Positions 24,401-33,400 of a stretch of DNA of 64,000 nt are shown one piece after another. The DNA lies in assembly GCF_964204645.1 (NCBI RefSeq), contig NC_134025.1, positions 20,807,101 to 20,871,100 of the forward strand, read 5' to 3'. Source of the DNA: Tubulanus polymorphus. Taxonomy: Eukaryota > Animalia > Nemertea. The notes under the pieces were generated by a model that saw nothing but the letters and a program-made list of their open reading frames with translations, had not been told where the DNA came from and did no database searches. The position numbers and the translations under genes were made by a program. Each line of letters begins with the position of its first letter. The first letter of the stretch is position 1.

Positions 24401-27400
24401 AAAGGAATCGGTGCTGTGATTTTCTATGACCCTTCACTGTATTGAAATAACGCTTTAAGATAATAATGGACAGCTTTCACCGTACTCAACTGCCAATGGA
24501 AAACAGGCACCCTATATTCCTAAAAAAGTTCAACTTACTGTAAGGGTGCTTCATATCGATGAAGAATTCTTTTCCGCAAATATAACAACAAACGCTTTTA
24601 ACAGTCTTTTGTACATAACAAATCAAGAGCCCAGGTACCAGTTTCTCCCATAAGTTGATCGAAGATAACCGGTGGATAAATACCATAGTAGCAATGAACT
24701 ATCAATTGTCACTATGTCAACTATCCACTGGTTAACTCAATTAACCAATTTATGAGCAACTGGCCCAAGATCACAAGTATTCATCCGGAAATCAAATGAG
24801 CCTGAACCATCGAGTTAATTCAACTACCGGATGTAAAGCAATCTAGGTGACCCCAAGGGTTTGATAAGTTAATCAATACTGGACCCAGTTCCACAGTTAA
24901 GGTTGAAAGAGTCAAATTTTGTAGATTTCCACTCATTCTGAGATAGAGGGTATACAGCACAACTGAACTGAACTGGGGTCCTGATCTACAGTACGTACAT
25001 ATAAACCAGGGGGCCTGTTGCTCAAAAGTCAGTACGAGTTAACCAGTGAAGGATAGATGAGAGTAAAACTTCACTTTTACCCTGGCATCTATCCCAATGG
25101 CTATCTTTACCAACTTGTGAACAACTGACCACACGCTGTCAACGTTCAAGTTATATATTAAGATTGTGATTTTACAATCAGGCTGTTGTTACTTGACAGT
25201 AAAAGGCATTTCGGCAGAAATCAATACAGATCTATAATCTATCATATACAAACATGCACAACATTGAACCTTGGGAGTAATAAAACATATAAATCAACAA
25301 TCATTTGTTGTGTGATACCATTAAATCACTGAAGTAGGCCATAGATCAACGATAATGCAATCGGTTGCAACCGGTCGCAAATCCAGATCCGACTACTTCA
25401 GTATCTACCTTTGTAGCATTTCACTACAATTTGACATCTAAAACATTAATCTAATTGAAAACTAGAAATTATTCTGATTTTAAGAGTATTTTGATGATAA
25501 GGTAGTAATTGAGCTCTTGAAAGTGTAGTAAATACTCCCAATTAGTGATGTGGTAGTCAGGTCAGCAAATGGGCATTGTACGTCAAATACCGACTTGCCA
25601 ATGCCAACCTATGTCTGGCTTGATAATTGATCTAAAGCCGGTTTCACATACTGACGCATCCATTTTTATGTATCTATTAAAGCTAGTCAGACAATTTGAC
25701 TATATCACGTACTGATAAATGAGAAATATCCAATTTCAACGATAACTATGGACGTGTTCATCTTTCATCCCTCAAACCCACTGAGTGACACTTAATAAAG
25801 TACACGTACAAGATTGAGGCTTCTTCCTGAATAAGGGGAACGGTCTGAGAAAAACTTTCGACCCAGGAAATTTGAGCCCGAAGAAATCAAACTCATGATT
25901 GATGAAATCAGTAATCGATGGCCATAATTGGTAATAATGTCAAATAGTAAAATCCCCTTGCAAGTTCTTTCTCGGAAAGAAAATATTGCAACAAAAAATC
26001 TGATTGGAAACTATTCTGCCTATATCGACAGGATTGAACGTCGGTATGTGACACTGGTGCATGCTTCACAGCGGGAATAAACGTAGTTAAGAAGTGATAT
26101 TGTATTAATGCTGTTGTAAGGAGCGCGCATACATAAATGTAATGGTAAAATATTAGTAAATATACACGCATTTTTCTCAACCGATGCAATTTCATACTAA
26201 ATGCTTACCATTAATAGGAGGGATCCTATTCGGATCCTGGTAGCCGGCATCCGGTTTATCGGCAGTATCCACTTCGTTCTGAGAGGTTATACTCTGCAAA
26301 TACGAGTAAACAAAAAAAAAAATTCGAAATTCTCATCGCGTCCACATCTGTCAAATTACCGTCTCCGTTGTGACCATTTATACTTACCGTCGGGGATGCT
26401 GTAACGGTGGTCGCGCCGTAATTTTCGTGCCGAACGTTAACAGAGTTACTCTCTTTGTGCAACGTCGATTTACCGTCGATAACGGATGTGGTGCCCGGTT
26501 GGTCCGGTACGACATAGCCCCGGCGGTCGACTAAGCTATAAGAATGAATGTATAAGAATAGAGTATACAAAAAAATATCTCGAATCAATTGTTCAATAAA
26601 TATTCCATAGCTTAACACCTCGAACGCCGGCCCATGTGCGTTAATTTCCCACCCATTTGACTCATCATTACAAAATGATAGAAACGTGATATGTTAAACA
26701 TAGGGATAAATTAACTATGGACATAACGAGATATTGGTCTAAAAATTTAAATATTTCATATGTCATACTTCGTACACAATATTTTATTTATCATATTTCG
26801 GTATGTATTTACCTCGGAGGTGTGGGTCCGCACAGCACATACGCACAATTCGTGAATACAGACCCTTTGCTGTAAGGATTGAAATTGTTTTGGCCTCTTC
26901 TCGACGAAAAAGTGCCTTTGATCTGCGAAATAAACGAAACACATCGCAAACATTAATCAACGCGCTACGAATTATCAATTTCATTCATTTGCAAGAGGAG
27001 TACTCAAAAGAATAACATTATACATCAATTGGAAATTCCTTAAAAATTTGAAGAACTTTTTTCAGCGAGTACTTAGCTAGTTTACCATGCAATGAAACAT
27101 CTGACATAGAAAGTGAAAACACATTTAACATGCGAAATACTGCATTCAAAAACAATTGTTACACATTTATGGGGGCGATTTGCATTCGATAGCGAATGAA
27201 TATAAGCCGATATCAATGACCAACCCCAGTATCAATGTATAATGAAAATAAAAGGAAAACATATCATCATTATCGAAAATGACCACTGGAGTTCCACCTG
27301 ATTAAGGCTTCTTCATTCCCCAACTGACTCTCTTCAAGCAAGCTTCAATATTATACATACTCGTTCTCTACCAAAAAATTGGCTTCAATAGGGGTTTTCT

Positions 27401-30400: not shown

Positions 30401-33400
30401 TATGTGATAGGTATTCCTTCAATTATTGTCACGTTAAATACTTCAAAGATGGCAGATAAATAAAATCAGAGATGACACTCACTGCCCAGCAGGAGTTTGG
30501 TTGTTGGGATTTTCAGCGCGTGCATCTATTTGTGTACAACACTCACGCATATGATTGGCTAAAACTACGTCATGTCTCCCTTTGGAGTTAACAATATGGC
30601 GGCTTCAGTGCCTAAAAAATGTTTTATATGAACCTATTTAGGAAAATAGGAAATTTTGATTAGCATAATGCCAAACAACAGTAAATTTTAGTTTTGGTGC
30701 AGTTCCCCTTTAAAAGCATATACATAAAAGCATATACATATATATATATAAATAAGATGAAACACATTTATCAGAACAATAAACGCTACCATGCCCATGC
30801 AAAGCAATATAATGAAACCAGCAACACCAGTGTAGTCTGCATAAACGCACACAAACCGAGGGGAAGAAGATTTCACAATACATGTAGTTCAAAAGCATGT
30901 GATAATTAGGGTCGAGTTGTCAAGTTGTGATTAGTAAAAAAAAACAGTATTAATCTGCATTGACTTGAAAACTAAAATTGGCCTAGACCGATCTTCGGTC
31001 TAAGCCGTGACTGTGCAATAGTCTCCAGAAGTGTTTCAAGATTTTAAAAAAGTTTTTTTTTGCAGTGGTTCATCTAGGCCGGTAGTAAACTGTACTCTTA
31101 TCTGTAAATGTTATCAACTTCATTATACAGTAAACTGTATCCCACTGCCTCGGATTATTGCATATGGACGATATATTATACATTTTCTAAGTTCCCAATT
31201 CATCGCGACAACCACCAATCCCTTCTTCGATTTCGCGTACGATACCTCGGGAAACAATATATTGATCCCGCAAAATCCGAAGCAAGCAGATTCTACCGTA
31301 TAGCGCATCATCTTCTTCCACCTCGGATCGCGAAGAAGCCACCAGAGCGAGAGAGAGAGAGAGAGAGAGAGAGAGAGAGAGAGAGAGAGAGAGAGAGAGA
31401 GAGAGGAGAGAGAAAGAGAGAGAGAGAGAAAGAGAGAGTAATAGAGAGAGAGAGACAGAGAAAAAAGAGATGTACATCACAGACGAACACCGAATACCGG
31501 GTAGATACAGAATTACTCACATCTTCATTAGTTGTCTGATTAGACGTTGTCAAGTATGTATGGAAACCGGCCAGGCCGATTATTGACCAAACAGAAAAGA
31601 AGCAGACTATCGCTTCGAGTATAGTGAAACGGAATTAAGGACGTAGTAAGCTATAGTTAAGCCGTTATCCCTAATAACAGGCATGTGGACCATTCACCAA
31701 GTACATACACAACTATCGGGATTCGAAATCGCCGTTCTGAGCGAAATTTCACTAAAACGCAGGACAGCATAAAATTGCCATAGTGGAGAAACGGTTTAAA
31801 TTGACAGCATATATGACATGGTACGTAATTCATGAATGTTCCCATATGCGCGCCGTCCCGAGTCAGATAAGTTGGAAATAGTCAACGTCTCCTTACTCGG
31901 TACTGAAGTGAACTTGAAGATGATCTTGTCACAACGTTTACAATTTCAAAACTCAATTCTCAACTTTGGTGTATGGTGCAAGTATGCTACCGAGTAAGGA
32001 TAAGTAAACTGAGGCTTAGCGAAAGTCATTATCTTCTGCAAACAACCGTGGAAATACGCGACGAAGCATTTTTGTTTTCTAGTTTGAAAAAGGTTAACGA
32101 AATTCATTCGCAAGGTGTCAGTTAAGTAATGATGACGAATTCACACATTTAGTTAGTGAACCAGTGACTATTGCAGCACAGCACATTTCATATTAGGCTA
32201 TTAGTATACCGGGTACTTTTTCATTTCTCCATCATTCAGTAACTCCACATTCTCAGCTACTCTTCGAGGAACAGTTTTAAGAAGAAAGACACTTATAAAA
32301 ATAGCCACAAAAGCTATCATTCACCGACACATGCAAAATATCTCGGGTAGACTTGTCCTAACTTGAATCACGTGTGGCATTAGCGATAGTTTCAAGTAAC
32401 GTACGTGATAATTCAGTAGACATTTTTTGCAGTAGTTCATCCACCCTTAGTTAATCCACCCTTTCACTGCATCTATCCGGCTATGCAAGTGAGCAACCCC
32501 ATACGGCATTTAACCCGTCGGTGCAGTGTTTCCATACATGGTAATTGTTAATTCGCTAATCAAATCTCCGTCAAAGATTGTGAAATACCCCACACGGTGT
32601 GGTAGATGGAAGATCAAGATGAAATACTCAACAATTTCTGAATATAGTTAGTAATAATATTCAGGATGGGAAACTTCTGTAACCGGCAATGAAAGAGTTT
32701 CAAGCGATAATTCGATTTTGAAATGATTTCGAGTTAAGAGGAGTCGCCGTTGTTTATCTTGCACGTCGTTAATAAGAATGAACGAAACAAAGATATATAT
32801 CGGTGTCGTAAGCTAACAGGAGTGTGGTCGTTGAAGTGTTTTGAAATACAGAGGGAGAAAGTGAAAAGTGGCGTCAAGCAATCCACGTCGAGTAGAGGAG
32901 AAAACTAACGAATCACGCTCTACTTAACAACCTTTCGTCAGACCGTACGACATAAAAAAAAACTTGTTTTCATAAAAGGATATCTGGCAGGTGATTCGCG
33001 CATTGCAGAAAGAAAATTATTTTTTTGGGCTCCTGAAAAGGAAAAGAAAATTTGATTCGAATTGTTCCCTTGTGAAACTTGTACAAGAGAAAATGCTGTC
33101 CCGAATATAGCACTTCGTAAAATTGAAATCATAAATTGTCAAATTAATTAATTAATTAATCATTTTGCGGCATGCGACAAAACCAAAATATTGAATTGTC
33201 GCGGGCGACAAAACCAAAATTATTGTTTTGTCGCGCTATTCAAGTTTTATCGTTTTGTCGTAATGTTGCCCTCATTTGCATATTCGTGTTTTTTTTACGC
33301 ATGGCCCTTATCAGCCACCATAAATAAGGGTTCATTGGACGCAGAACACAATCACTGAATAACCAATCTTACACTTTAACGGCTGGTCTAAGCTTGTGCA

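Follow-up and report, generated by a model that had tools for sequence, protein, structure and literature searches.

How might a gene that carries four versions of one exon admit just one of them to a transcript? The question is raised by a locus of the palaeonemertean Tubulanus polymorphus within a stretch of 64,000 nucleotides (nt) (NC_134025.1, positions 20,807,101 to 20,871,100 of the forward strand), here called the window and numbered from its first letter. On the minus strand of the window, a ZDHHC palmitoyltransferase gene contains a single AT donor, four in-phase copies (A to D) of the exon encoding the fourth membrane helix (TM4) and the TTxE motif, and then a common exon 7. We consider it probable that the minor spliceosome picks one of the four acceptors, and that mismatch between splice-site classes bars the inclusion of two copies or of none.

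Splice sites of the cluster and the joining of copy D

The common upstream exon 5 (32984-33032), which at 49 nt slightly corrects the preliminary description of the locus, ends at a single U12-type AT donor, ATATCCTTTT (32974-32983), to be compared with the consensus RTATCCTT (PMC10853781). Behind this donor lie exons 6A (31521-31623, 103 nt), 6B (28883-28988, 106 nt and so one codon longer), 6C (28400-28502, 103 nt) and 6D (27589-27691, 103 nt), preceded by segments that hold a U12 branch box and an AC acceptor (31624-31641, 28989-29008, 28503-28521 and 27692-27709, respectively). The boxes, TCCTTAAT in A, ACCTTAAC in B and TCCTTAAC in both C and D, end 8, 10, 9 and 8 nt before the AC, and those of A, C and D match the consensus TCCTTRAY exactly while that of B has one mismatch. 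Their second A is 12-14 nt from the exon, the optimal branch distance being given as 11-13 nt (PMC3584512). Each copy ends in a GTRAG donor (GTGAG for A; GTAAG for B, C and D), so that the introns between the copies (2532, 380 and 708 nt) are hybrids of a GT donor with a U12 box and AC. Exon 7 (26813-26922) has a U2-type AG acceptor without a U12 box, which scores -5.5 on the U12 matrix. The coordinates of the donor, the four exons and exon 7 given in the preliminary description all hold on re-checking, as do the box 8-10 nt before each AC, the GTRAG donors and the ordinary acceptor of exon 7.

This arrangement is rarely expected by chance: the 6-kb cluster has four occurrences of box plus YAC, whereas 2000 dinucleotide shuffles had a mean of 0.216 and only one of them reached four; a slightly different pattern of box plus AC has 11 matches on both strands of the window, four of them being the cluster acceptors. 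Each copy is recovered by a profile built from the other three (E 4e-7 to 9e-17). As had been described, the four are free of stop codons in the same phase despite their divergence: any one copy preserves the reading frame from exon 5 to exon 9, and protein identity among them is 29-56%. A profile search across the 64-kb window found no fifth copy. One further match to box plus AC, at 27308, was considered as such a copy and rejected because no homologous frame follows it.

Transcript evidence comes from contigs of four runs (X1-X4) of one study, for which the library type is not on record; run X3 was taken as RNA because spliced joints are present in it and absent from the other three. A 5450-nt contig of run X3 (depth 95.9) contains, in contiguous order, exon 8 (contig positions 3739-3886), exon 7 (3887-3996), copy D (3997-4099), exon 5 (4100-4147) and exon 4 (4148-4288). 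Moreover, the loose end of the contig before 32984 is the reverse complement of the first 30 nt of D. The joint between D and exon 7 rests on the contiguous record positions, and that between exon 5 and D on those positions together with the letters of the loose end; a 5292-nt AT-AC intron has therefore been removed and D joined to exon 7. The junction from 32984 to 27691 skips the acceptors of A, B and C, and both the AT and the AC end are seen in use for D only, one of the four members. It had been allowed at the outset that exon 6A might be the only copy found in transcripts, or that transcripts with two copies or none might be common; the assembled transcript uses D, and D alone. Among the junctions that had been predicted, those from 32984 to 27691 and from D to 26922 are thus present in the run-X3 contig, and those of A, B and C are not seen there.

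A protein query with exon D returned one protein among three candidates, the ZDHHC14-like isoform X2 of T. polymorphus in RefSeq. Window exons 1-9 with copy D give exactly the first 398 residues of both RefSeq isoforms (P0001 and P0002), which carry D alike and differ only in their last exon. We do not count these isoforms as independent because they may have been built on the same data.

Selection on the copies and their distribution in relatives

The copies were compared over 30 aligned codons (the first 25 and the last 5). In all six pairs the proportion of synonymous differences is saturated (0.70-0.94) against a proportion of nonsynonymous differences of 0.26-0.48, and the amino-acid identity to A was reached in neutral simulation in only 3, 3 and 0 of 5000 runs for B, C and D, respectively; C, an open frame, carries the codon-position signature of selection. 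Judged by these substitutions, selection is shown to have acted on the copies since the duplications, which does not imply that it continues today. Flanking intron identity between copies is 0.15-0.43, mostly near background, and the splice signals that have been kept are therefore not left-overs of a recent duplication.

The cluster is not peculiar to T. polymorphus, and orthologs have annotated isoforms in which the same 34-residue block is swapped. Such swaps were accepted between proteins with an identical 40-residue upstream and 25-residue downstream flank, in groups with at least two parsed proteins, and they occur in 19 of 27 named lophotrochozoan groups, a tally entered by hand from annotated gene models that leaves out Babylonia (whose two proteins differ in the flanks), single-protein groups and unnamed clusters. 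Two variants are found in Lineus, abalones, a chiton, octopus, oysters, Owenia, Lingula, snails and Dreissena, and three in four groups (two of Mytilus, Mizuhopecten and Argopecten); eight lophotrochozoan groups, among them T. polymorphus itself, have one. In locusts (15 proteins), a cockroach (3), Tachypleus (2), Priapulus (3), amphioxus (9) and, for ZDHHC14, mammals (15), each species has a single block. Public gene models P0207, P0209, P0260, P0313, P0318, P0035 and P0084 are mis-spliced at the AT-AC intron, by reading through the donor or losing exon 5, and the annotated variant counts are therefore likely to be too low.

Copy A is identical to the Lineus isoform X1 block at 33 of 34 residues, to that of amphioxus at 31 and to mammalian ZDHHC14 at 28, and by this comparison it is the ancestral type. 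Residues C1, C9 and Q13 are shared only by copy B and the block of Lineus isoform X2 (2 of 71 distinct blocks), and B groups with this Lineus variant at 91/86, which is below the support bar in a weak tree of 34 columns and 37 rows, poorly resolved and with long branches, that cannot separate one origin from several. These two blocks are probably orthologs. Residue Y20 is common to C, D, both Owenia variants and one Lingula variant (5 of 71 blocks), which is too little for a call. The preliminary description had staked its case on orthologous copies of B, C and D; for B a probable Lineus counterpart exists, and for C no clear ortholog was found among the 71 blocks.

Genomic layout was examined in a metagenome scan from which 80 of 120 loci were kept. 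Among 82 exon matches, 47 lie behind an intron ending in AC, one behind an intron ending in AG, and 34 directly after exon 5, either fused or spliced. Two loci, L015 and L016, have two tandem copies each, every copy with its box, AC and GTRAG, and the peptide of the first copy is the block of a Dreissena isoform. Five gene models (from two Elysia, amphioxus and two sea urchins) read on into RYPF, which is the frame of the AT donor and points indirectly to an old donor. On these comparisons the AT-AC intron predates the cluster, and each duplicate of exon plus acceptor would therefore have carried the lock from the start. In the window, L015 and L016, the boxes nearer to the donor depart more from TTCCTTRAC than the farther ones; with three loci, this order of weak near and strong far boxes is a lead only. 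An apparent conservation of copy A at the nucleotide level in L015 and L016 was rejected, their ranks of 3 and 16 among 62 being not above those of other loci.

Some loci have lost the AT-AC intron or changed its subtype. In L001 the orthologous intron (934-1081) combines a U12-like donor and box with GT and AG ends, having switched from the AT-AC subtype, and an AG precedes the donor there, a feature linked to use by the major spliceosome (PMC10853781). In L010, L012, L021, L025, L027 and similar loci, exon 5 is fused to exon 6, the downstream GT intron is kept and the peptides are arthropod-like; loss of the minor intron may explain why such loci have a single variant.

Choice among the copies

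The explanation that we favor runs as follows. The AT donor is joined to the AC of D past three other AC sites, and the GT donor of D is joined to the AG of exon 7. The GT donor of one copy would be unable to join the AC of a copy downstream, and the AT donor would be unable to join the AG of exon 7, which lacks a U12 box; AT-AG and GT-AC combinations are described as disfavoured (PMC3584512). Any leaks would be removed by nonsense-mediated decay, given that all 11 multi-copy products and the product that skips every copy contain a stop codon 167-529 nt before the junction of exons 9 and 10. The weaker boxes of the nearer copies would let the machinery bypass them by default, and A, B and C would be used at a lower level or in other tissues.

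Several observations weigh against this explanation or limit its reach. The contig evidence comes from one run of one study, and copies A, B and C are seen neither in the run-X3 contigs nor in the RefSeq isoforms of T. polymorphus; nothing is concluded from their being unseen in the contigs because contigs drop rarer variants. An AG that lies 8 nt before D has 11 pyrimidines among 17 upstream positions, compared to 12-15 at the nine true AG acceptors of the gene, and an upstream copy joined to it by the major spliceosome would be in frame. Use of a second AC that lies 5 nt inside C would put the product out of frame, which speaks against a perfect lock, and AGs lie 11 nt inside both A and B. 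On an acceptor matrix trained on orthologs, on which C is the best of 585 acceptor-like ends (15.0 bits) and D reaches 12.7 bits, A (1.0 bit) and B (1.8 bits) are outside the top 14, this matrix being biased in that 20 of its 36 training boxes are of one type. A stop-free frame alone is weak evidence, with a probability of 0.31-0.36 per copy under neutrality. As to relatives, the failure to find a clear ortholog of C among the 71 blocks has been mentioned, and a search for B-type proteins with a profile built from B and its Lineus counterpart yielded 50 matches among 61 candidates, with C1, C9 or Q13 in none of the 48 that were new. The block occurs twice in none of 339 proteins, a lack that is partly built in because annotation filters out frameshifted products. 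Finally, all 28 loci that span the region from the donor to exon 7 have a single copy, many of them being near-duplicates, and the cluster is accordingly not universal among genes that have retained the intron. The claim in the preliminary description that exactly one copy is included through U12/U2 incompatibility stands as far as D is spliced in alone; it has to be softened in that the AG before D is a possible leak and premature stops would act as well.

Of the rival explanations, the one that survives best is that only D, or D with one or two others, is in use, and that the remaining copies, above all C, are intact-looking relics of a formerly larger cluster. The presence of D alone in the run-X3 contig and in both RefSeq isoforms fits this account, as does the want of an ortholog for C among the 71 blocks beyond the weak residues common with an Owenia variant, and selection detected between paralogs can be old. 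A, however, matches the Lineus block at 33 of 34 residues although synonymous sites between the copies are saturated, and B has three private residues in common with a Lineus isoform in the annotation. In C, the copy most readily taken for a relic, the branch box is the best in the region and the donor reads GTAAGT, and the low identity of the flanking introns argues that these signals are not remnants of a recent duplication. We therefore regard the relic account as unlikely.

Still less probable, in our judgment, is that copies are appreciably co-spliced or skipped and that exclusivity arises mainly through nonsense-mediated decay. The premature stops in 11 of 11 multi-copy combinations and in the skip product are what this account needs, and the usable-looking AG before D and the AGs inside A and B would provide the leaks, as would the rare dual-type 3' sites that are described in PMC10853781. 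Such dual-type sites end in AG, however, whereas those of the cluster end in AC. The in-frame route through the AG before D would escape decay, yet two-copy proteins number 0 of 339, and the disfavoured status of GT-AC and AT-AG introns (PMC3584512) argues in the same direction.

That competing RNA pairings of the Dscam type, with one docking site and several selectors, steer the choice while the AT-AC ends are only inherited would be in line with the usual mechanism of clusters with more than two exons (PMC6071210) and with some long-range duplexes of -24 to -31 kcal/mol in the region, but it is very improbable given that no window on the donor side or the exon 7 side pairs with all copy flanks above shuffles (27/30 and 13/30 being as good or better, a weak test in one genome) and that the longest inverted repeats listed are microsatellite. 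RNA pairings could nonetheless steer the choice alongside spliceosome incompatibility.

The enzyme, its surroundings and known systems

Upstream of the cluster, the gene comprises coding exon 1, from its ATG (38032-38273), exon 2 (35970-36130), exon 3 with the cysteine-rich domain (35077-35235) and exon 4 with the DHHC motif and TM3 (33555-33692), the last also being present in the spliced run-X3 contig; downstream of exon 7 are exon 8 (26388-26535) and exon 9 (26209-26293), with the joint 26293/26388 present in run X3. All of these agree exactly with the RefSeq translation. Alternative last coding exons at 19207-19262 (isoform X2, P0001) and 15452-15609 (isoform X1, P0002), likewise on the minus strand and placed by the RefSeq translations, give the two isoforms different C-termini. 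That of X1 ends in SSV, which we take to resemble a type I PDZ-binding end. A short upstream ATG frame (38275-38284, minus strand) has a stop that overlaps the main start codon.

From its sequence, this gene is a nemertean member of the ZDHHC9/14/18 palmitoyltransferases (Erf2, Drosophila app). The protein matches the Pfam DHHC family (E 4e-38), its best solved relative is human ZDHHC9 (8HF3, E 9e-137), its nearest proteins carry the names ZDHHC9, 14, 18 or app, and it has the DHHC cysteine-rich domain, four membrane helices and a TTxE after TM4 that characterize the family. The alternative exon encodes residues 251-284, which in a predicted model (mean predicted local distance difference test 58.5, and 83-96 over residues 241-270) span the fourth membrane helix (248-276) and the TTxE region. 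Each copy retains a hydrophobic stretch of 19 residues (Kyte-Doolittle hydropathy 1.76-2.12). The four copies agree in eight alignment columns. Six of these fall in G-L-x-G-x-H-T-x-L near the cytosolic end, and the second T of TTxE is a further one; this T and the E are kept in all four, with a shift of one residue in B, and the luminal half of the block is the most variable part.

According to a ZDHHC9 preprint, TM1, TM3 and TM4 line the acyl pocket, which is conserved close to the catalytic cysteine and varies at the tail, while PMC8059564 describes a chain-length preference set by cavity residues and contacts of the second T and the E of TTxE with the catalytic domain. A swap of TM4 would thus change one wall of the acyl-chain pocket and leave the G-L-x-G-[FY]-H core and the second T of TTxE fixed. 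The isoforms are likely to differ in acyl-chain or substrate preference. The gene also supplies naturally occurring exchanges of a single pocket helix, in a family of enzymes for which selectivity towards acyl chains and substrates has so far been poorly accounted for.

Elsewhere in the window, an open frame of 360 codons (1611-2693, plus strand) with DUF4817 helix-turn-helix and DDE_3 domains is, by its domain content, an intact-looking Tc1/mariner-type transposase. Very high-copy short repeats at 33170-33330 and 24660-24900, with summed run-X1 contig depths of thousands to millions, are probably the ends of small transposons. The exons of a membrane-protein gene upstream (about 40200-43350, minus strand) end some 2 kb before the ZDHHC start; we presume a resemblance to acyltransferase-3/NRF-6-type proteins, and one exon of 56 residues has no Pfam match. 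A frame of 327 codons at 59977-60960 (minus strand), with many hydrophobic stretches, is receptor-like and matches no Pfam family at E 0.01.

A more ambitious account would have the minor spliceosome make a regulated four-way choice over 4 kb, by an old lophotrochozoan device that grew independently to three copies in mussels and scallops and to four in T. polymorphus, with all four copies used and each supplying a different wall of the acyl pocket. We offer this account tentatively, giving it slightly less than an even chance, and it has been doubted whether alternative U12 3' sites are a matter of regulation and not of error (PMC3584512). If it were true, this would be the largest spliceosome-incompatibility cluster on record. 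What is at hand is one AT donor that reaches the fourth of four intact AC sites, in a gene for which two or three variants of the exon are retained in relatives. As every duplicate brings its own lock, copies could be added in any number with no need for docking structures, and the cluster lends itself to a direct test of whether, and how, a choice among distant acceptors is made by the minor spliceosome; oysters, mussels and octopus, with their wealth of RNA data, would be suitable for such a test. RefSeq represents the examined cluster of T. polymorphus by copy D only.

How, then, does this locus compare with known systems? In JNK MAPK8/9 (exons 6a/6b) and TMEM87A/B (exons 11/11a), a hybrid intron with the ends of two spliceosomes parts the alternative exons and leads to mutual exclusion (PMC1874599, PMC8329584, PMC6717393). 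The JNK explanation invoked in the preliminary description applies in that hybrid introns do lie between the copies; their polarity, however, is the mirror image. In JNK and TMEM87, as described in those papers, a U12 5' site faces a U2 3' site, it is the major spliceosome that selects an acceptor, and the minor intron is the downstream one, whereas here a U2 5' site faces a U12 AC 3' site, and one minor donor serves four minor acceptors 1.4-5.3 kb away. The copies also number four rather than two. The exon pair 37a/37b of CACNA1A/B adjoins AT-AC-type introns and may be a two-exon case of the polarity seen in the ZDHHC cluster. The available part of a review (PMC12149502) does not show this precedent.

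In 2018, spliceosome incompatibility was stated to be limited to clusters of exactly two exons (PMC6071210). Hatje et al. (2017) counted five human clusters based on U2/U12 incompatibility, 0.79% of 629 (PMC5740500); these belong to the same class of mechanism and are compared here by class and count only, and ZDHHC2 is the only ZDHHC gene among the rows seen in the supplements of that paper. In a literature search that covered mostly open-access papers, no report was found of this cluster or of a U12-gated cluster with more than two exons. The earlier statement that no four-member cluster of this kind had been described is borne out to that extent, and has to be qualified in that the cluster is not peculiar to T. 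polymorphus.

Dscam, Mhc and 14-3-3 clusters likewise consist of tandem homologous exons of like length and phase that encode one structural element. They rely on competing RNA structures, however, whereas each copy in the ZDHHC cluster has its own minor-class acceptor and no docking site was found in the one genome searched. Within the ZDHHC9/14/18 enzymes themselves, each arthropod, priapulid, amphioxus or mammalian species sampled has one block and lophotrochozoans have two or three, compared to the four of the T. polymorphus gene. The cluster described here acts like a spliceosome-incompatibility switch, and it departs from the JNK definition in both polarity and number.

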